A stretch of DNA of 64,000 nt from Eremomyces bilateralis CBS 781.70 (GCA_010015585.1 ML975154.1); one strand, 5' to 3'; shown: positions 7,886 to 61,984, counted from the first letter of the stretch. Notes: a model not told the origin generated them from the sequence alone. Program-made: numbers and translations.

Positions 7886-9150
7886 TCACAACGGCCTATA
7901 GAACCCCTTCCCCTCATCAGGTTGGACAGTGTCGAACTTCCTCTCGTCAGGTTGGATGGTGTCGAACTCATCAGGTTCGACGGTGTCGGACTTCCCCTTA
8001 TCCGGTTTGACCACGTCGAAATCGACAGTTCGCACATTACCGCTGTCATCGCAGTCTAAGCCCGATGCTTGCAAGGCCGCCCACCGCACGCCTGCCATTC
8101 CCAGGAATTGACCCTTGGGACCCGCGGTCATGGCGCTGCACGCGAGGATGTCGTCCATCGCCTTCATGCCGCCCGGCCCGTCTTGTAGTTCTCGCACCTG
8201 CTCTTGGACCATGGTGATCTTCTTTCGAAGGTCCGTCGTCAACGCCTCGGACGTATTGTCCCCGAACCAGGAGTTTCTTCCCGGAGGGAGCAATCGATCC
8301 ACTTTGGAGAGGACGATCTGGTGCGGGACGTTCATCTCGTACAGAAGCTGAAGCAGATGCAAATCGGATTCCATGAGGAGTTCCTTGCTGCTAACCAGGA
8401 CGAACACTCTCCGAAGCCTTGGTGGATCAGCTATTAGCACACTTCTCATAGAACATCCGGAACCATGAACACGCACTGTTTCCTCTGCTTCAAAAACTTC
8501 AATATCTCCCCTCCCCACGCATCGCGACTCCCAAACCCATAACCCGGCATATCCACCACTACCAGACCCCCCCTCCCAATCCACCTCTCCTCCACTAACT
8601 TCGGCGCCTTCCCCTTCCTATCAATCCACTTCCTCCTGGTCCCCCCCGCATCATCTCGATCCCCTCCCCTCCCCACCTTAAAGAAATTCATCTCCTTCGT
8701 CAACCCCGGCCGCTTGCTCACCTTCGCCAACGCCGTCTTCGCCGCCGCCGGGCCCGGTGGTCGGCGCATGAGCGCGTTCAGCAGCGACGATTTCCCAATA
8801 TTGCTGCGGCCGAGGAAGGCGATCTCAGGGGCCAGCGAGTCGCGCGGGAGGGAGAGGAGTGACGTCGAGGCGAAGAGGAACGAGGCGGGTTGGCGGAAGA
8901 ATTTGTTGACGTAGGTGAGTTGCGCGGCGTTAGGCGGGGTGGTATCGGTATATAGGCCGATCGACTCAGCGGTGACGGTGGGGTTGAGGACTTTCGGCTC
9001 GGTGGATTGCCGACTCGAGCGCATGGGTCGATAGCGGGCATGGAGGAGGTTGGACGTGTGGAGCGGGCGGCGCTCATGGAGGTTGGTGGGTGGATGGGGG
9101 GGAAAAGGCCGGCGGAGGATGCGCGCAGACCAAAGACGCCATGTTGTCAT
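7886..9150 (-). CDS. EngB/YihA-family GTP-binding protein, probably mitochondrial (MRX8-like)
   Basis: G1 EIAFLGRSNIGKSSLLNAL, G2 SKRPGLT, G3 VVDMPGYG, G4 SKVD. Intron 8418-8476. The N-terminus MTTWRLWSARILRR resembles an Arg-rich presequence. Confidence 0.85.
7915..7994 (-). repeat. Three imperfect 21-27 bp coding tandem repeats (DT-x-[QE]-PDE) in the GTPase C-terminus
   Basis: Protein reads SDTVEPDE-FDTIQPDE-RKFDTVQPDE. TCAGGTT...GTGTCG occurs three times on the + strand. Confidence 0.8.
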
Positions 9151-9383
9151 GTCTCGGGCAGATGGAACCCGCTTCAGACAGACATTGAGTACGCCTGAAG
9201 AGACATGTAATGCTAATGATCGTTCCGTAGACGAGAAGAAATAGTCGTGGTGACTGGTGAGTCCAAAGATGATGTCGAAATATCTGAGGTCCGAGCTCGA
9301 ATATCGGAACTCATCACTCCTCTCACGACTCACGCGCCAGGACCACTCATTTACGGAGTACAATAATTGAAAATGAACATTTC

Positions 9384-10470
9384 ATGAGTTCGCAATTCCC
9401 TACAAAGCGCATCGCCGTCCTCACAGGACACAATGGTAAAATACGTCATTTGAAAGACCTTGAACTCAGTTCTAATCAGTACATCAGGCCCCGTCCACGC
9501 CGTCACCTACTCCTCCGGACTAGGCCAATACGTACGTCTTAATCGACTACAGCAGCTTATACATAATTTTAACGTCCCCCAGATTCTCACCGGCTCTTCC
9601 GACCGCCTCGTCCGCCTCTACAACCCCTCCACCTCCCCCTCACCTGGCCCCATCCAAACCTACCACGCCCACGGCCACACCGTCCTCGACCTCTCCATCT
9701 CCACCTCCAACGCCCGCTTCGCCTCCGTCGGCGGTGACCGCCTCGTCTTCCTCTGGGACGTCGCCTCCGCCACTACCCTCCGCCGCTTCGGCGGGCACGT
9801 CGGGCGGGTCAACGCCGTCGCGTTCGCCGGCGACGACGACACGGTGCTGGCGAGCGGTAGCTTCGACGGGACGGTGCGCCTGTGGGACTGCAAGAGTAAT
9901 AGTTCGCGGGCGCTGATGACGCTGTCAGAGGCGCGGGATGCGGTGGTGAGTGTCGCGGTGGTCGGGGCGGATGTGTATGCGGGAGGCGCGGACGGGCGGG
10001 TGCGGGTGTACGATGTGCGGATGGGGATGCAGTGCACGGATGTGGTGGGGGCGGCGGTGACGCATGTGGAGCCGACGAAGTTGGGGGAGGCGTATTTGGT
10101 AGGGAGCGCAGATTCGCGGGTGCGGTTTATGGAGCGGGGGTCGGGGAAGTGCTTGATGAGTTATAAGGCGGAGGATTATAAGAGTGAGGGGCTGCGGTTG
10201 CGGTGCGCGTTGGGTCCGGGGGAGAGAACGGTGGTTGCTGGGGGTGAGGAGGGGAAGATTTGTGTATGGGATACGATGGAGGGCACGCTGTTGCATGTGC
10301 TGGAGCATGAGGGACCGGAATCAAAGGCGAGCAAGAAGATTTTGAGCGAGACTGCGCAGAAAGAGAGGAAGGTGGTTAGCGCAGTGGCGGTTTGCAAGAG
10401 TCAGAGCAAGAAAGAGTGGTGCAGTGCCGGTGGGAATGGCGAGGTTGTAGTTTGGGGCCTTGGGCGGTGA
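9384..10470 (+). CDS. WD40 repeat protein WDR83/MORG1-like
   Basis: Exon 1 MSSQFPTKRIAVLTGHN, two short introns, then WD repeats (ILTGSSDRLVRLYNP; FASVGGDRLVFLWDV; GHVGRVNAVAF...LASGSFDGTVRLWDCKS). Confidence 0.85.
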
Positions 10471-11963: not shown

Positions 11964-13639
11964 TTTGACGGATGGAGGGGTAGGTCAAGATACTTGGAGA
12001 GTCTTGTTGATGAGGGGTAGGTATGGATATGGACTGGTACCTGACCGAAGCTGTTTTTCGAAGATAGAAAGAAAGTGCAATGGCAATTGAAAAACAGGAT
12101 CCTAATATCTTGGAGGGAGAAGCTGGAGTTTAAGTAAGTTTCGATCTGGATAGGTGTCTCCTGCCTCCGATCCACCGATTAAGTCATCGCACCGGACGGA
12201 TTACAGATTTACAGACCTTGGGAATGTCGGCGAGAGCAATAGTCATTCGTGCAAGGTTGCCATTGGAACCTCGAAGGCATGGCCCGTTTTAGGGTCCAGT
12301 GTTAATTTGATCGGCTTCCTGATCGAGGGGAGATACAGAGGGGCATACAGAGGGGCCATTGGGTGCTGCTCAGCGAGTTGAGCCGAGTCCTGGCTCCTGA
12401 GCTTGAGGAGGCGGGCCGATTTAGGTATCGTGAAGCGATTGAGTCTGGGCTAGCCTATTGACTCGATGGGTCCCCCTCATCAAGCCAGGACTTGCTAGGA
12501 GGGCAGGATACGAAAATAACGAAATCCCTTTACTATCACATTGCCATCGGATGATATGACGCGTTTTCTGTATGGGAGACTGGAGTGGGAGACTGAGGCT
12601 TGGATGGGGTTGGGGCTCGGCGGCTCGCTCCGTTGCTGACTCACTGGCCATCCCCAAGTTCTCAACATCTCCTCCCATAGTGTTGGCGTCAGATTATCCA
12701 ACCACGATGCGGAATACTTACCGAATCGCCTGTCGTGAGCTGAATAATTGTACTAGGGATGATTTGTGAGTCCTCATGGAAATACTCCGTGTCAACCCAA
12801 AATGGCTGTTGATAGATATTTCGTTCCTATTCTCTCCTCATCATCATATTAGAGTCATACCTATGCGCGTCGCTGAGTAATGCTTAATTAGCTGCTGCCT
12901 GCTGGAATGTTGGGTTTCTACATCATGACAAAGTCCTTGGCTGCACAAATTGCATATTTCAATCTATCTCCATCGTCTGCGGCGGTTCTCAGGTTGTCAG
13001 TCTCGAAGGTTTTGGTCTCGAAGGTTCTCGGCGTCCGACTACTGACCGAGAAGCGAGAGTATCAAGGGATGTTCTAGCCCCGCATCCATCCAGAAGAGCT
13101 GTGAAAAGTACCGGTACTCCCAGACAGGAGGGATACTTTGATGCGGAAGACACTATCGTCAGTGTAGATGATAGTACTAATAAGCCAGGTCAGCTATCTG
13201 TAGGGTCTAGGTAAGATCAATGCCAGAAGAGAGGAGTTCAAGGGGAAGATGGCTTGCATTCCTTTCCAGTTCATCCCTCTCCTCACGTCGTATTGACCAG
13301 CCTCGTACTGATGCTCTATACATTCCACTCATTGTTTTGATTTTATACATGCCAGAAAAGTCGGGTGATTGTACGTCCATCACCACTTTTCCCATTGTTC
13401 TCTGGGATGGGCATTTTCAACTTCATCTTTTATTCTCACAGTCATTACCAGGTCAGGACAACAACACTGAAAGATTGGTTGAAGAGGATCCACGCTCCTT
13501 TCTTTTGAGATCCTTGAAGATTTGTCCCCTTTTTAGCCCTATTGTACATACATTGTGGAGATTGAGAATATTGCGCAATCTCTTAAACCTTCAAGCGAAT
13601 ATCACGAAACTGTTGTTTGTCTCTTAGTTCAATGCAGTC

Positions 13640-21705: not shown

Positions 21706-24700
21706 ATGGCAAGTTCTTTAGGTCCAAATCCATCTGTCGAAGATATTGAGGATGAAATCATCCTGCTGGATAGCCTTCTCGAATCGCTCGAATCGGGATC
21801 AATCGATTACGACCGACTCCAGTGGAAATACGAGAAAGAACGACAAGAGCTGTTGAATTTGCTATCCGAAACAGAGAACCAAGATGCAGAAAGTAAGTCT
21901 AAATGCAAGATAATGCGCATTGTTTTAACTAATTCCACCTCAAGTAGGCAATCCTCGGGCCACTGCATCGCCACACCCGCCCAGCACAGAGCAAACATCC
22001 AGGAAACGCTCGCTAGATGACGACGACCGCTCTATACCCGGTGCCTACCCGGTCTCGAAATCAAGAAGAACGTCTGGAGGTAGCTCAGGAGCGAATTCGC
22101 CGACTTCGGTAGATTCGTTGGGGTCTATTCCTGGTCTTCGACAACCTGGAACTCCAGGCAGCCAGCGGGCACTGCAGCGGCAACGAGACCGCTTCGAGTC
22201 TGCGGAGAAAGGTAGGCTTCAAAGACGGCTTGATGAGGAGTTTGCAAAAAGTCTACAATCGGAGGATATCAGGGCGAGGAATGGCGGGGACTCTCATCCA
22301 GGCGCAACCACAACCCCGGGTCCTCATATGGCCATACAAGATTGGGCTCGCCCTCCGCCTCGCTCCTTTGATGACCCCTTCACCGATCTTATGGAGCTTC
22401 CTAATAGGCAAGGGCAGACGGATCGCAACACATATCTCAACGTTTACCCCCCTCCACCACCCCCACAAGACACCCCGTTTATCCGTACATCCGGAGGATT
22501 CATGAATCCCTCGGATGCGATACACACCCTTGTGAATCGAGCACCCTCCTTAAAGCAAGAGAATCCCTGGGCGCAATATCCGAATGCAGCTTCAAGCTCT
22601 CGTAACGACCCACCATGGCCTCCACCAGACTACGATCCTTATGGCCGCGGCATGCTCCCTTGGCAGCGCGAGATTCACGATGACCTCTACGGAGCCGCGC
22701 AGGTCAATTCTGCAGAAGAGCAGAAGCATCTCCAAAGCCTCATGGGAAACATCGAGTCGATTGATGATGTTCCTATTCATGATCGAGATCAGACCCCGAG
22801 GGAGATGGACTGCACGCTCTACGAACACCAGAAGATCGGGTTATTCTGGCTGAGGAAAATGGAAACGGGTTCGAATAAAGGCGGGATCCTTGCTGATGAC
22901 ATGGGTTTGGGGAAAACGATTCAAATCATCGCTCTCATGGTGACCCGACCCTCGGATGATCCAGCACAGAAGACCAATCTTATCGTGGCGCCTGTCGCCC
23001 TGCTAGAGCAATGGAAAGGTGAAATCGAGCGTCTCGTCAAACGTCGGTTTCGGCTTAGTATCTTCATCCACCATGGTCAAAGTCGTGCGAAGAGTTTCGA
23101 AACTCTTCGGTCCTATGATGTTGTGCTGACCACCTACGGCCAATTGACCGAAGACCGGAAGCGGTTGCTGCTACGGCAAAAGGCCCTCGAAAACAACCCA
23201 CGAGTGAAGCTTACCCCCCAGGCCACCCCAGTCCTGATGGGTCCTAACTGCAAATGGTATCGAATTGTTCTGGACGAAGCGCAAAATATCAAGAATAAAG
23301 ATACGAAGGCGTCAATTGCCGCCTCGGAGCTTCGCGCACGGTATCGTTTCTGCGTCACTGGAACTCCAATGATGAACCGGGTCTCCGAGGCATACAGCTT
23401 GATTCGGTTTCTGCGAATTCCTCCCTATGACCAGTGGAATAGCTTTAAACTTGCCTTTCACTCCAAGCTGCAGTTGGGAAATTGGGACAGCACTGTCATG
23501 GAACGATTTCAAGCCGTCCTCCGAGCCATGCTGTTGAGAAGGACCAAAAAGACCAAGATTGATGGAAGGCCGATCGACGAGACCCTCCCGGACCGGGTGA
23601 TCCATACCGACCACTTTGTGTTCCGAGATGATGAAAAGGAGTTCTACAAGAATGTGGAGACGCATAACAAGGAAAAATTTCAGGGCTATATGGACCGAGG
23701 CGAGGTGGAGTCCAATTATATGGCCATCCTGGTCTTGCTCTTGAGGTTGCGTCAAGCCTGCTGCCACCCGCTGTTGATTAAGGACTTGAGTTTCGAGCCT
23801 GCCACCGATCTCTCGGAGGAAGACTTGGCGACATTCGCGGCGAAGTTGACACCAGAAGCAGTTCAGCGAGTAAAAAATTCTAACGGCAACTTCATTTGGT
23901 GTGTACTACCCCTGATAGCAATGCGAGACATGACACTAACCAGATGAAAAGTCCAATCTGTCTAGATGCGACGCGCAACCCAGCTCTTCTTGTCCCGTGT
24001 GGCCATGAAATGTGTTCCGATTGTCTCTCGAAGTTCGTCGCAGATTCCAACAGCACGGATGATGAGGATGTGAACGTACTGTGTCCACAATGTAGAATCA
24101 GCTTCAATCCGAAACAAGTGACAGACTACGGCGCCTTCCTGAAGGAGTATATGCCGGAAGAACCTCCTCAAGACACCGCTGCGCCGATTGGTTCAGACGA
24201 TGACGACTCTGATGAGAGCGATGATGAGTCGGGGACGAACAGCTTGGACGGGTTCATCGTGCCTGACGACGAAGATGACGGAGATATTGACGAGGAAGCG
24301 AAAGGGCGCAAAAATAAGGGAAAGAGCAAGAAGAAGGGAAAGTCGAGGGCTTCGAAGAAGAAGCTCAGGGACATGACGCTCGGAGAGCTTGCCAAGGAAT
24401 CCCGCCGCAACGCACGAGCCAAGTCGAAGTACATCCGCCGGCTTCGCAAGATGTGGCGGACCAGCTCCAAAATCGAGAAGACGCTGGAGATCTTGACGGA
24501 AACCTACCAGAAAGACCCCACGGAGAAGACGATTATCTTCTCTCAGTGGACGAGTCTTCTCGACCTGTTGGAGATCCCCCTCAAGGATCACGGCTACCGA
24601 TACCTGCGATATGATGGAGGGATGACCTCCACGGAGCGAGCGACTACCATTTCCAAATTTATGCGACGGGACGATTGCAACGTCATCCTCGTCTCGCTCA

Positions 24701-28114: not shown

Positions 28115-29991
28115 ATGGCTTCTGCGCTATTCTTCCTCGACCTGAAGGGCAAGGTAAGCTCGCCGTATTCGAGGCGATTGCGCGCGAAGGCTGACAAGGT
28201 GGTAGACCCTTTTGGCGAGGAACTACAGAGGCGACATTCCAATGTCTGCCGTCGAGAAGTTCCCCATTCTCCTTTCAGAGGCCGAAGAAGAGAGCTCCGC
28301 AGTGCCTCCATGTTTTTCGGATGATGGGATCAATGTATGTGCTTCTGTGACCAGTTCACATGCTTAACATACGTTGGCTTGAGCTTACCATCCATGGGTT
28401 CTAGTACCTATACATCCGCCACAACAACCTTTACCTCCTCGCTCTCACAAAACGCAACAGCAATGCCGCCGAGCTCCTTCTCTTCCTTCATAAAGTTGTT
28501 GAGGTATTCACGGAGTACTTCAAGGAGCTGGAGGAGGAGAGTATACGGGACAACTTTGTCATTATCTACGAACTGCTGGACGAGATGATGGACTTCGGCC
28601 ATCCGCAGATCACGGAGACGAAGATATTACAAGAGTAAGGACTGGCACAGATACTGGCTAAAAATGCTGCCACGAATAACATCCTAACTTGCTATTCTAG
28701 GTACATCACACAAGAATCACATAAGCTTGAGATCCAGGCTAGGCCTCCAATCGCAGTCACAAATGCCGTCAGTTGGCGAAGCGAGGGTATTCGATACCGA
28801 AAGAACGAAGTTTTCCTCGACGTCATCGAGTCACTCAACCTTCTCGTGTCGTCAAACGGCAATGTCCTGCGCTCGGAAATCCTTGGCGCCGTCAAGATGA
28901 AGTGCTACCTGTCGGGAATGCCGGAGCTACGGCTCGGATTGAACGACAAGGTCATGTTCGAAACAACAGGAAGAGCAACAAGAGGGAAAGCTGTTGAAAT
29001 GGAGGACGTCAAGTTCCACCAATGCGTACGGTTGAGTAGATTCGAAAACGATCGAACAATCAGCTTTATCCCGCCCGATGGCGAATTCGAGCTGATGAGC
29101 TACCGGCTTAACACCCAAGTCAAACCCCTCATTTGGGTGGAATGCGTGGTCGAGAGCCACTCTGGAAGTCGCATAGAATACATGTTGAAGGTTTGATGGC
29201 ATCGAGTCCAATATTTCAAAGGTCGAGACGCTAACTGAACTCTCTACTTGCAGGCGAAAGCCCAATTCAAGCGACGAAGCACCGCCAACAACGTCAGCAT
29301 TTCAATACCTGTTCCCGATGACGCCGATACGCCGCGCTTCCGCACCAACATCGGCACCGTCCACTACGCGCCCGAGACCTCGTCAATAGTCTGGAAAATT
29401 AAGCAATTTGGCGGTGGCAAGGAGTTCCTCATGCGAGCCGAGCTCGGTCTCCCATCCGTACGGGGCGACGACGAAAAAGGCGGGGGCATGATGGGTGGCT
29501 TCGGTGGAAGCATGGGTGGGGTCTCTGGCGGCAAAGGGAAGCGACCCATTTCCGTCAAGTTTGAGATCCCATACTTTACGACTAGCGGAATTCAGGTGCG
29601 GTACCTGAAGATTAATGAGCCCAAGGTATGTTGCGCTGTTCGCTGTTGGCGTTGTGGTGGAATTGTGGGTTTGATTGGTGCGACGATGTTGCCTTGCTGC
29701 ATTGTGTGCGGCCTCACGCCGGGACCGGGCCGATGACCAGGGCGACAGTTCCAGGGCGTTCGTCACGATGCACTGGAACTACTAAGCGTCCCATCTTGCC
29801 CGGGACATGAGCGCTAAGGTCGCCTGCGACACCTATACCCACCCATCCAACTCTAAATTGACCTCAAATCCGCCTACGAAAAGTCCTTTTACTGACCTTG
29901 GTACTATCAGTTACAATACCCCTCGTTGCCTTGGGTCCGATACATCACCCAGTCTGGCGATATCGCGGTGCGACTACCAGATGTACAGTAG
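28115..29991 (+). CDS. APM1: AP-1 clathrin adaptor complex medium (mu) subunit
   Basis: MASALFFLDLKGK|TLLARNYRGDIPM, RDNFVIIYELLDEMMDFG, VSWRSEGIRYRKNEVFLDV, FHQCVRL, SFIPPDGEFELMSYR and last exon LQYPSLPWVRYITQSG. Five introns. Confidence 0.96.
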
Positions 29992-30325
29992 ACGGGGTTT
30001 TCTGATTGGTTTGGCCGATGCGGGCATCTATCTAAGGGCGATCGAGCCTACAAATCCCTGGGGCACTCAAACAACTTAATTTGGCATTTGCATCATGGAA
30101 TGAGGCTATAGAGCGACTTTCTTAGCATATATGAGCCATGCCAATAATGAGATGCTACAATGTCGGTAAAGCAATGCATTCAAGGATATCTGTGTAGGAG
30201 CCATGATCATTCCAGGTGTTTCGATCCCCCTGTGTTCCTCATAGCCGCGCCAAAGTTAGCTGGTCTGCTCAGCACGTATTGTGGGCAATGAATAACGTAA
30301 AGAACGTAGTATGGTAGGGCACAAG

Positions 30326-31214
30326 TCAATGGAAAATTTTCCCTTCTGCGACGGTTCCATCCTCGAAAAGTCGGAGCGGAGTCGTGTCCTCCGAAAGAGT
30401 GAATACTTTGACGAGAATGCCGCGGCGCGATGTCCCTGCACAGCATTAGAAGGACTTTGATTCAAGCTCACTTTGGGCGGTTGCTTACACCCTTCATCTC
30501 TTGGAAGCCCATGGCTCGTCCAGGTCAGACCTCTCATGCAATTAAATAATGCAAGATGAATATTCCCGTTTGGGACGGACAAGGCAATCAGTGCAATGAG
30601 TATGGCCACTTCCCCCTTCAGACCGCCAAGGCCAGAATTCTGAGGGCTATCATCATGGACATGGTGGGGGCGGTAAATGCAAGGGAGAAGCTCCTTTGCC
30701 CATACCTGACTTGGTCGAAGGAGCGTCAACCTCGGGACACCTCCTTCATGGAAGACGGCGCGTGACACGTATGATTGATCATTCTCGTGCACAAATGCCA
30801 GGCACTTCCAACCAATATCCATCACTTCCAACGGGGGTTCATGAGGCTCTGGGGTGGGCGGTTCAGTAACGTCCTCGCCGCATCCATATATCTGCCCCTC
30901 GTTATGGTAGACGGATACCTCACCAGCGTTGTGAATCGCATCCATAGGGAAGGAGCCGGGTGGATACAAATGAACTGTGCTGCCATCAAAATAGAAAAAC
31001 GAATGTTCGTCGAATATCAGTTCCCAGTCATTATCACGAAATGTTTGAGGAGGAATCCAGGCTCCCGTTCCGTAGCGTGTATGCTGGTATTGTGGATCTC
31101 GCACGTCATTAAGCTCATATATCTGGAACGCAAACGGAGGCTACAACTAGGTCAGCATCGATAAAGTACCGTTGCAGACGATCTTACTCCAGGTGCTCCA
31201 TTGCCTGTAGCCAT
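30326..31214 (-). CDS. Hypothetical fungal protein (3 exons)
   Basis: Exon 1 MATGNGAPG with GTAAGA donor, a long exon 2 in the 282-aa ORF frame, intron GTAAGC...CTAAT...CAG, and last exon WTSRRGILVKVF...GKIFH*. Splice signals are clean but I recognise no domain. Confidence 0.65.
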
Positions 31215-35015: not shown

Positions 35016-36395
35016 ATGGACCCGAGAAAAATAGCACACACTCTCATCCTTGACGCGGGCCCGATCATCAAGAATGAGCCGTCGGTGTCAAGCCTGCTCG
35101 CACAAGGGGAGAGTCTTGTGACAACACCTACCATCATTTCCGAACTTAGAGACGAAGCAACAAGGACCAGAGTCGAGACCACCTTACTTCCTTTCCTTAC
35201 CCTTCGCAGTCCTAAACCGTCCAGTATCAAATTTGTCACAGAATTTGCCCGCAAGACCGGAGATGCTGTGGTCCTCAGCAAGCCTGATATTGAGCTTATT
35301 GCTCTTGCGTACGATGTGGAGTGTGAGCGCAATGGAGGAGACTGGCGGTTAAGAAATGCGCCGGGCCAGAAAGGCTTGAACGGCTCTCCACCACAGGCTG
35401 ATACTTCCGCGGCACAGGATTCAGGAGATGGCAACGCATCCGAAGATGTCCAATCAAGCCAGCAGGATGCAGGAGATGGCAACGCGTCCGACAGTGTCCA
35501 AGCAAGCCAGCAGGATGCAGCAGGTGGACCGGATGTTCAGCCTGAAGAGCCCAGCGAGCCTACAACGCAGATCGAACCGGAAATTGAAGACAAGGACGCA
35601 CAGGAGCTTGAGGAGTCTGTTCAAGAGCAAACCCTTGACTCCTTAGCAAAACTTGAAATTGATGCAACGAATCCAGAGCAAGAATCCGTTGTTGGTGGAT
35701 CAGGAGATGCGGTGGCCAATCCTACGCCGGAGACTAAAGAGGAGGACGACGATTCTGATGGATGGATCACACCGGCGAATATCTCAAAACATCGAGCGAA
35801 AGACTTGCAAAGCTCTTCGAAAGAAGGCGCAAGTCGCAAGCCTGTTCAGGCTGCAATCATAACTTCGGATTTTGCAATGCAAAATGTAATCCTGTCCATG
35901 AACCTCAACCTCCTCTCCGCCTCCCTTCAACGAGTTCGACAGATTAAGACGTTTATTCTCCGGTGTCATGCATGCTTCCTCCAAACCAAGGACATGACGA
36001 AACAATTCTGCCCTCGGTGTGGAGGCCCTACATTGACGCGGGTGTCATGCTCGACAAATCAAAACGGAGAGTTCAAGATCTTCTTGAAGAAGAATATGCA
36101 ATGGAATACTCGAGGCGACCGGTACAGCATACCAAAGCCGGTGGCTGGCTCTTCCAAGGGGAAGATCGCACAGGGCTCGAAAGGTGGTGGGAAAGGTGGA
36201 TGGGGTCAGGGGTTGATTCTTGCTGAAGATCAGAAAGAGTATACCAGGGCAATGGAGCAGGAGAAACGGCGGCGGCAAAGGGATCTCATGGATGAAGACT
36301 ATCTTCCGAGTATCCTGAGCGGCGAGAGATCCAAATCAGGAGGGAAGCCGAGGATTGGAGCCGGGAAGAACGTGAATTCCAAGAAGCGAATATGA
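35016..36395 (+). CDS. NOB1: 20S pre-rRNA D-site endonuclease Nob1
   Basis: PIN domain (LILDAGPII...FARKTGDAVVLSKPDIELIALAY), DDSDGWITP, TSDFAMQNV and Zn ribbon CHAC...FCPRCG. Confidence 0.95.
   Translation: MDPRKIAHTLILDAGPIIKNEPSVSSLLAQGESLVTTPTIISELRDEATRTRVETTLLPFLTLRSPKPSSIKFVTEFARKTGDAVVLSKPDIELIALAYDVECERNGGDWRLRNAPGQKGLNGSPPQADTSAAQDSGDGNASEDVQSSQQDAGDGNASDSVQASQQDAAGGPDVQPEEPSEPTTQIEPEIEDKDAQELEESVQEQTLDSLAKLEIDATNPEQESVVGGSGDAVANPTPETKEEDDDSDGWITPANISKHRAKDLQSSSKEGASRKPVQAAIITSDFAMQNVILSMNLNLLSASLQRVRQIKTFILRCHACFLQTKDMTKQFCPRCGGPTLTRVSCSTNQNGEFKIFLKKNMQWNTRGDRYSIPKPVAGSSKGKIAQGSKGGGKGGWGQGLILAEDQKEYTRAMEQEKRRRQRDLMDEDYLPSILSGERSKSGGKPRIGAGKNVNSKKRI
35415..35524 (+). repeat. 48-bp coding tandem repeat (about 2.3 copies) in the NOB1 acidic linker
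   Basis: CAGGAT recurs at 35415, 35463 and 35511. Protein reads QDSGDGNASEDVQSSQ/QDAGDGNASDSVQASQ/QDAAG. Confidence 0.85.
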
Positions 36396-60751: not shown

Positions 60752-61984
60752 ATGGATACCATCCCTTCCACTCCACCACCCTGTCTCGTCGATGATAGGC
60801 GCTCCATCGTAGAGATCATAGTCAAGTATTTTGTCGTCCATCTCACCACCATTGCCGCGTTCGCCCATTCTCCGTCAAGAGGCCGTGGTCGGATGGAAAC
60901 TGGTCTACTACGTCCTTGCGCCCGGGCATTTCTCTTTCAGCATATCGCGGGCCTTGCTGCCATCGTTGCCATCGCGCTCTACAATGCTTTTCTACCCCGA
61001 CATCAGCGAACCGATGTCTGGGAAGTGGTGCATTGCCTATTTGGGATCGTGGACGATGATTCCCATGACGACCGACATGCCGACGATGGTCAACGGTTCT
61101 GGAAACGATTCGGAGAGCCGCTGCTGGCAATCGGCTTCTTGACGCAATGCTCGAGTAGCGTCTATCTGTATTCGCGTCGGCTCGCGTTCGCCCCCGACTC
61201 GTTGACGATTGCGGATCAGAAAGTGTTTGAGCTCGCGAGCAGCGGGCTTTTTGCGGGTTTTACGTGGCTGGCGTTGAAGGCCAACTTGAAGCCGTTCTCA
61301 GGAGCCGTACCCTGGAGGTTCCTGGACTGGACGCATGAATTTTAGGCAGGCATCACAGACAGTATCCTGCGCCTACACCATCGTCGGTTCTGACGAAACT
61401 GGAAGTCCTGGTCTGTTTGGCTCGTGACATGAGCATCGTATCACGGCTCCAATATCAAATTGGCCCCTACTCCGCCTTCCACATGATGTCCTTCATGAAT
61501 CATCTGTTCGTTACTCTGATATTGGCCTCCGCAACAGACCAGATCACCTATCTCGGATGGACCGAAAAGGCATATTGGTCATCATTGGCTACCTCTTACT
61601 TGCTGCACTTGTGTTCTACGTACTTTTCATATTCTGTTTGTTCGTCCCAATGACCGCTTTGGCTGAGTACCAAGGGCAAGTTAAGAACAACGGCACTAGG
61701 ACGTACGACAAGTCCCAGCAGCATCAAATTCGACCCGGCGATCAGCCAAAGTCTTACTTTTGGTACTTTGGAAACATTCTCAAATCCCTGTTTCCCAGGC
61801 ACTCGCCCTTTTACATCACTCTGACCGTCGTGAATGCGTTGGCACTTGCAGCTTCGGGGATATATGCCGGAGACTTCTAATCGTCGGGACTCAGCTTCGA
61901 GAATTAGCATCGTGGCCGGAGAATACGACCTGTCCATTGCTCTGGAGCGATAAAGCTGCAAATTGGGTATGGGCATTAGCATGA
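60752..61984 (+). pseudogene. Frameshifted multi-pass membrane protein gene (probable pseudogene)
   Basis: Hydrophobic coding-like segments continue across all three + frames (60752-61345, about 61365-61560, 61557-61880, to 61984 ending WPENTTCPLLWSDKAANWVWALA*). I see no convincing introns at the junctions. Confidence 0.55.

Follow-up and report, generated by a model that had tools for sequence, protein, structure and literature searches.

The last intron of the AP-1 mu gene of Eremomyces bilateralis is oversized, self-complementary and predicted to fold into a single rod

Why should the last intron of a gene be several times longer than all its siblings, and does the surplus encode anything? 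This question is raised by the gene for the AP-1 mu subunit on the plus strand (28115-29991) of a 64,000-nucleotide stretch of DNA from Eremomyces bilateralis CBS 781.70 (GCA_010015585.1 ML975154.1), which we analysed as a whole and refer to as the window. The original prediction was that this intron harbors a structured RNA built around a three-way junction, and that this RNA is either an intron-encoded non-coding RNA of an atypical H/ACA-like kind or an element that controls the splicing of the final exon in cis.

The identity of the host gene follows from the in-frame translation of exon 5, which shares 77-98% identity with AP-1 mu proteins of fungi in the database, and whose closest named matches are from Dothideomycetes (Delitschia, 96%; Alternaria, 94%). 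The 285-nt last intron is real and it is spliced. A transcript-like contig of 5950 nt from run X3 joins position 29625 directly to 29911, i.e., exon 5 to exon 6, and it skips five GT..AG stretches in AP-1 mu of 52, 70, 66, 63 and 285 nt, such that the predicted disparity between the last intron and siblings of about 50-70 nt is borne out to the nucleotide. Run X3 was classed as RNA by guess only, a class with which its splice joints agree, and a contig from a DNA run, possibly the source of the window itself, is colinear with the window. The splice signals GTATGT, TACTGAC and CAG, the last at the 3′ end of the intron, all follow the consensus. This single contig contains only the spliced form of the last intron, and X3 has no contig over 29640-29900, which has no bearing on small or unstable RNA. 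If retained, the intron would extend the reading frame of exon 5 by 36 codons before a stop. A nested intron (stwintron) was considered and rejected: the intron has internal CTAAG motifs but, judged by eye, no internal donor, and the contig skip is a single one of 285 nt. The only tandem repeat within the intron is a 7-nt unit present 2.6 times at 29629-48.

Two observations in the vicinity of the intron may be recorded here. Codon AAT at 29611-29613 specifies Asn five residues before the intron (...YLKINEPK), at a position where the relatives listed (n = 19) have Ile in 18 cases and Thr in one. Downstream, the X3 contig does not end at the stop codon of AP-1 mu but contains one more joint, at which approximately 53 nt are left out (30436-30488; within 30435-30489); under this extension lies an open reading frame of 282 codons on the minus strand (30256-31104). 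Since one contig covers both convergent genes, their 3′ ends probably overlap.

The strongest signal of the intron is its self-complementarity at the DNA level. Aligned with its own reverse complement, the intron scores 208, as compared to 91.4 +/- 18.1 for dinucleotide shuffles (z 6.45, 0/300). Because the two halves of the intron have opposite base skews, which could inflate such a score, the shuffling was also confined to blocks of 30, 48 or 95 nt, and the result was still 0/300 each time (z 4.3-4.9). The unusual self-complementarity suspected in this oversized intron thus withstands shuffles that preserve local composition. The alignment extends over 29636-29883 and has 78 complementary columns out of 113, namely 22/34, 19/34 and 37/45 from the outer through the middle to the inner third, which corresponds to arms that are about 69% complementary overall and 82% in the core. 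Among 2549 genomic windows of 285 nt, ten reach a score of 208; two of them are the intron itself and eight lie within 8626-9960. Outside this one low-complexity, compositionally skewed stretch, the intron ranks first in symmetry. The region 8500-9960 is peculiar in its own right, being C/T-rich and then G/A-rich; self-reverse-complement scores there reach 248, the maximum in the window, and folding energies are oddly close to zero. It probably represents two oppositely oriented coding regions with a strong strand skew.

The skews of the intron agree with the earlier description of a GU-rich 5′ and a CA-rich 3′ flank: G and T predominate in the 5′ part (GC skew +0.5, AT skew -0.4 to -0.64), C and A in the 3′ part (GC skew -0.35 to -0.61). 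The 35 non-complementary columns of the arms comprise four of the G.U type, five of the A.C type and 26 of the transversion type. Because G.U and A.C mismatches are balanced, albeit in small numbers, pairing of the sense-strand RNA is not visibly protected, and because most of the mismatches (26/35) are of the transversion type, the alignment of the outer two thirds of the arms may be partly compositional. We also considered whether the arms derive from the glycine-rich part of exon 5, but direct and inverted 9-15-mers gave no significant signal (182/300 and 138/300), and this origin was rejected.

With respect to the fold, all complementary segments named in the original prediction are present at the positions given for them, and their pairs are canonical throughout. 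The three-way junction is indeed the best fold when 29741-29824 is folded alone (-34.8 kcal/mol; -26.9 for the exact pairs proposed earlier). In a wider context, however, a single long hairpin wins: over 136 nt, the proposed structure together with its 5′ hairpin reaches -35.7, as compared to -60.6 for a single long imperfect hairpin. In the ensembles of the core, the whole intron and a 500-nt pre-mRNA context, the closing stem as well as the AGCG/CGCT and GTCCC/GGGAC pairings have P~0, and so does the preceding hairpin CGGCC/GGCCG, whose segments exist as described. The perfect 8-bp stem 29747-54/29773-80 is the sole survivor among the helices of the three-way junction, with P 0.95-1.0 in all contexts. 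The pairing of GTGGGT (29665-70) with ACCCAC (29837-42), which had been suggested for the flanks, is likewise predicted (P 0.83-0.86). The predicted fold of the intron interior is therefore one rod-like hairpin and not a three-way junction. In the minimum free energy (MFE) structure of the whole intron, the rod has 66 pairs spanning the centre, seven of them G.U. Its apical stem-loop is unique in the 64-kb window at up to three mismatches. The features are collected in Table 1.

Table 1. Features of the last intron of AP-1 mu and its flanking exons in the window
Feature	Position	Strand	Basis
Exon 5 of AP-1 mu, 124 codons, ends ...YLKINEPK	29254..29625	+	In-frame translation; X3 contig piece 29252-29623 covers the exon
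Last intron, 285 nt, phase 0, GT..AG	29626..29910	+	Exact 285-nt skip in the X3 contig
5′ splice site GTATGT	29626..29631	+	Sequence; contig joint
Degenerate inverted repeat (foldback), centre near 29763	29636..29883	+	Self-reverse-complement local alignment
Outer zipper-type stem, 5′ strand (predicted)	29651..29670	+	Pairs with 29837-29851; P 0.54-0.86
Core rod hairpin (predicted), ~41 pairs, small bulges and internal loops	29708..29823	+	MFE; most pairs P>0.9 in the whole-intron ensemble
Apical stem-loop (predicted): perfect 8-bp stem AGTTCCAG/CTGGAACT and inner helix 29756-60/29767-71	29747..29780	+	P 0.95-1.0 in every context
Outer zipper-type stem, 3′ strand (predicted), includes ACCCAC	29837..29851	+	Pairing with 29651-29670
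Putative branch-site heptamer TACTGAC, branch A 29895, 15 nt upstream of the 3′ splice site	29890..29896	+	3′-most CTRAY motif upstream of the 3′ splice site
Last exon LQYPSLPWVRYITQSGDIAVRLPDVQ, then stop	29911..29991	+	Sequence; X3 contig; comparison with relatives

We lean towards the explanation that this is an ordinary, constitutively spliced intron, which is oversized since its interior (approximately 29636-29883) is a decayed inverted repeat. An inverted duplication or the insertion of a foldback would have enlarged an old intron, and the arms would have decayed since. In the pre-mRNA, the two arms are predicted to zip into a long rod, composed of the core and the outer stem 29651-70/29837-51. 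We propose that, because the arms zip up, the spacing between splice site and branch point seen by the spliceosome would be near that of the 52-70-nt introns, such that the long intron may be handled like a short one, by analogy to the zipper stems of yeast. The rod might help splicing or might merely be tolerated, and it may have a structural role in cis.

The analogy to yeast concerns the outer part of the foldback, which possibly acts as a zipper-type stem. This stem has 15 bp (dG -17.9, linkers totalling 69 nt) and occupies intron positions 26-45 and 212-226, which satisfies the positional criteria for zipper stems given in PMC12350175. As with the zipper stems in the long introns of Saccharomyces cerevisiae RPS17B and RPL7B, for which that study describes an unconserved primary sequence among orthologous introns, the intron in the window differs in sequence from its orthologs. 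However, compared to the yeast stems as presented there (PMC12350175), the stem in the window is only the outer part of a foldback of the whole intron with 66 pairs, and its predicted stability is not clearly beyond that of shuffles. Some zipper stem occurs in 19/50 shuffles, and an equally stable one in 4/50; splice site and branch point are brought equally close in 19/60. A zipper stem is found in 1/12 of the other long orthologous introns, and the distance between splice site and branch point in these introns is not shortened beyond shuffles. A zipper role is thus statistically not distinct from shuffles.

How old is the intron, and when did it become long? We assembled 80 orthologous AP-1 mu loci from one metagenome scan, 74 of which contain both flanking exons. 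An intron at the same phase-0 position (K|LQYPSLPW) is present in 68 of these 74 relatives. Six relatives lack it; in 56 it is short (44-110 nt) and in 12 long (276-409 nt), and no length falls between 111 and 275 nt; two further loci end inside the intron after >211 and >213 nt. The other introns of the loci with a long last intron are approximately 51-137 nt. On a codon tree of exons 4 and 5, the long state requires three changes, a number reached by 0/500 label shuffles. In one clade, the window is grouped with L003, L005 and L006, all of them long (SH-aLRT 96), and a second clade unites the other 11 long loci with two short ones. The closest database protein, P0002 (exon-5 identity 98%), continues through 69 codons of intron without reaching the last exon, so that its intron, too, measures at least 207 nt.

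No counterpart of the structure or sequence of the intron was found in these 80 loci. Blastn of the intron against them gave a best E of 2.9; local alignment with strict gaps against 14 other long introns yielded none below 25/500 shuffles, and a similarity to L031 seen with lenient gaps (1/200) did not hold (128/500). A covariance model built from the single sequence retrieved only the intron itself from 370,724 nt of the relatives' loci, and with filters off the best score in sister loci was 8.8 bits (E 0.46). There were no 6-8-mers common to the long introns of ten lineages beyond shuffles. The read-through tails of 93 database open reading frames gave a best E of 0.016 against the intron, a value that is not significant when so many queries are searched against a subject of 285 nt. 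Six apparently compensatory pairs in the sister lineage are not evidence, since there were only two full sequences and MAFFT had mis-registered the middle. The folding of the long orthologous introns shows no trend relative to shuffles (z -2.48 to +1.69), and their self-reverse-complement symmetry is absent or weak, with the exception of L003 from the sister lineage, which is marginally symmetric (3-12/300) and whose intron sequence is unrelated to that in the window. Conservation, which had been put forward as a test of the original prediction, was thus not found; the lack of a counterpart is a weak test, because no relative exceeds 82.7% identity in exon-5 DNA, silent sites are saturated, and a neutral intron would be unalignable.

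The survey brought up several further observations. In L064 (2876-3169), L066 (2876-3171) and L069 (1560-1860), a block of approximately 33 nt (alignment columns ~213-245), which comprises a GGATC...GATCC hairpin around GGTGCGATGAGCCGCAGATCC, is nearly invariant, with the rest of the long introns divergent. In that clade the block may be under constraint, and nothing corresponding to it occurs in the window. Among 120 database proteins annotated as AP-1 mu, spliced models account for only 25, and 93 are open reading frames that continue past the end of exon 5 into the intron, such that the C-terminal tails of the 93 read-through records are translated intron and not protein. In P0001, a hypothetical protein of 246 aa from Verticillium longisporum, the C-terminal AP-1 mu part is present twice in tandem, with a restart at TNIGAVHYAPEQ... 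after ...LQYPSLPWVR; this is either an artefact of the gene model or a local duplication.

An alternative origin of the foldback, which we regard as unlikely, is that it represents one copy of a multi-copy mobile family. Such a family could consist of introner-like elements, of symmetrical introns that proliferate as in Hypoxylaceae, or of MITE-like foldbacks, one of which would have inserted into an intron already present. It was in Dothideomycetes that introner-like elements were first described, and this class also provides the closest named protein matches of the gene. Furthermore, the intron is longer than its siblings, has a stable predicted structure (core z -3.14) and is internally symmetric (0/300). 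These properties resonate with two studies, which report introner-like elements as longer, stably structured introns (PMC3609843) and the symmetrical (stw)introns of Hypoxylaceae as having terminal inverted repeats of 45-55 nt (PMC8469720). As described there, introner-like elements and the symmetrical sister (stw)introns are, like the intron in the window, several times longer than their neighbours, with canonical signals and a stable predicted structure, and they have in common with it an internal inverted-repeat symmetry able to make the intron RNA double-stranded (PMC3609843, PMC8469720). However, by the same accounts these elements exist in many near-identical copies at newly gained positions, whereas the intron in the window occupies an ancient position and has no second copy in the sequences compared, i.e., the 64-kb window and the 80 loci (PMC3609843, PMC8469720). 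With 68 of 74 relatives carrying an intron at this site, the intron is not a new gain. A second copy was found neither in the 64-kb window, which is small and affords little power (best blastn E 0.61), nor in the 370,724 nt of the relatives' loci.

Three findings count against the foldback being a mere relic and suggest that a functional reading may be kept alive. The sense strand of the core folds better than the antisense strand (z -3.14 vs -1.13), which would fit selection at the RNA level. The long state persists in two clades next to sibling introns of approximately 51-137 nt. Finally, L064 and L066, which belong to a clade other than that of the window, are more alike in the long intron (identity 0.83) than in three short introns (0.61-0.72). 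The persistence of the long state, together with the marginal symmetry of L003 despite its unrelated sequence, hints that something keeps the intron long and folded. We thus entertain, as a quite improbable reading, that the last intron has been kept long in at least two Pezizomycotina clades for a structure-dependent function, the rod either tuning the splicing of the exon for the final strand of the cargo-binding domain or feeding a small-RNA pathway, with the fold maintained while the sequence turns over. The 66-pair rod in the window and the marginal symmetry of L003 would then be two snapshots of one element.

It is conceivable, though in our estimate improbable, that chance suffices, and that a stretch rich in GC, whose two halves are skewed in opposite directions, simply happens to fold. 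The folding energies are ambiguous on this point. The core (29700-29835) has an MFE z of -3.14 and 29706-29825 one of -3.37, both with 0/200 shuffles as low and both picked after the fact, but the intron as a whole is not clearly better than its shuffles (z -1.04, 26/200; -1.6 to -1.81 under other shuffle schemes), and this is the outcome of the comparison with shuffled controls called for by the original prediction. In a 136-nt scan of both strands of the whole window, 21 of 7514 positions, spread over roughly a dozen further sites, equalled the core in folding relative to composition, and the outer-arm mismatches look compositional, too. Four of the scanned windows outfold the core for composition (residual z -4.8 to -4.1), at 35956-36091 on the minus strand and, on both strands, at 24447-24582, 12377-12512 and 60963-61098; the latter three look like inverted repeats, and none of the four has an Rfam match. 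What speaks against chance is the symmetry itself: it survives the local-composition shuffles (0/300 three times), the inner third is complementary in 37/45 columns, and the intron tops the genomic windows outside the one low-complexity stretch. If the rod is only the relic of a foldback, as we favor, thermodynamic z-scores alone can overstate a picked core and yet understate the symmetry of the whole element.

Very unlikely, in our view, is that the excised intron gives rise to a functional RNA, whether a lineage-specific, atypical H/ACA-like or other non-coding RNA or a rod that is a precursor of small RNAs. H/ACA snoRNAs have a hairpin-hinge-hairpin-tail architecture, with the H box ANANNA single-stranded in the hinge and the ACA three nt from the mature 3′ end, and box C/D snoRNAs have a C box (RUGAUGA) near the 5′ end, a D box (CUGA) near the 3′ end and a terminal stem. 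Like H/ACA and C/D snoRNAs hosted by fungal introns, the structure in the window lies within the intron of a protein-coding gene, and a well-defined, long imperfect hairpin of 116 nt is followed by an ACA. Both motifs of the original prediction exist: the ACA (29829-31) comes five nt after the last strong pair (29823), and ACATGA (29805-10) is the sole ANANNA of the intron. The better fold of the sense than of the antisense strand also sits well with an RNA product. Yet ACATGA falls within the 3′ arm of the rod and not in a hinge, and since it is only 18 nt before the ACA, a 3′ hairpin would not fit in between. Inside the outer stem lies a single rod (29708-29823), with no second hairpin 3′ of it; in the ensemble, the C+A-rich 3′ flank pairs back with the 5′ flank. 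A box scan of the intron detected no C box with one mismatch or fewer, its single CTGA (29892) falls inside the branch-site heptamer, and no pair of C-like and D boxes has more than three contiguous terminal pairs. Both an H/ACA and a box C/D snoRNA were therefore rejected.

Neither do RNA-family searches provide a home for the structure, in keeping with the original prediction, which could not assign it to a family. Rfam covariance models gave no match at the gathering threshold in the 64-kb window (rRNA included) or in 13 long-intron loci of relatives, and at E<=10 over 29400-30100 there was nothing in the intron and three weak matches, all of them in exon 5. Together with the missing conserved counterpart in 80 loci and arm mismatches that show no excess of G.U, this leaves the snoRNA-like interpretation unsupported; we found nothing showing that the intron encodes a known or conserved small RNA, and saw no discrete non-coding RNA gene.

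Equally remote is a regulatory switch, in which removal of the last intron would depend on whether the rod is folded or open, or on a protein that binds the rod; if retained, the intron would lead to a mu subunit without the 26 C-terminal residues. The in-frame extension of 36 codons before a stop, the long state that persists in two clades and the autoregulatory structures known from yeast introns are compatible with such a switch, but the one transcript-like contig has the spliced form only, GTATGT and TACTGAC are consensus signals, and no sequence, motif or structure is conserved among the long orthologous introns.

Returning to the decayed inverted repeat, the survey of orthologous last introns, in which the absent, short and long states are distinguished and the long ones cluster in two clades, is a usable comparative set. 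If the rod is only the relic of a foldback, it is an example of how a fungal intron becomes, and stays, five times longer than its neighbours. If close relatives were to show compensatory change, this would mean that zipper stems of the yeast type, or else a new intronic double-stranded RNA element, extend to filamentous fungi, and that they do so in a housekeeping trafficking gene.
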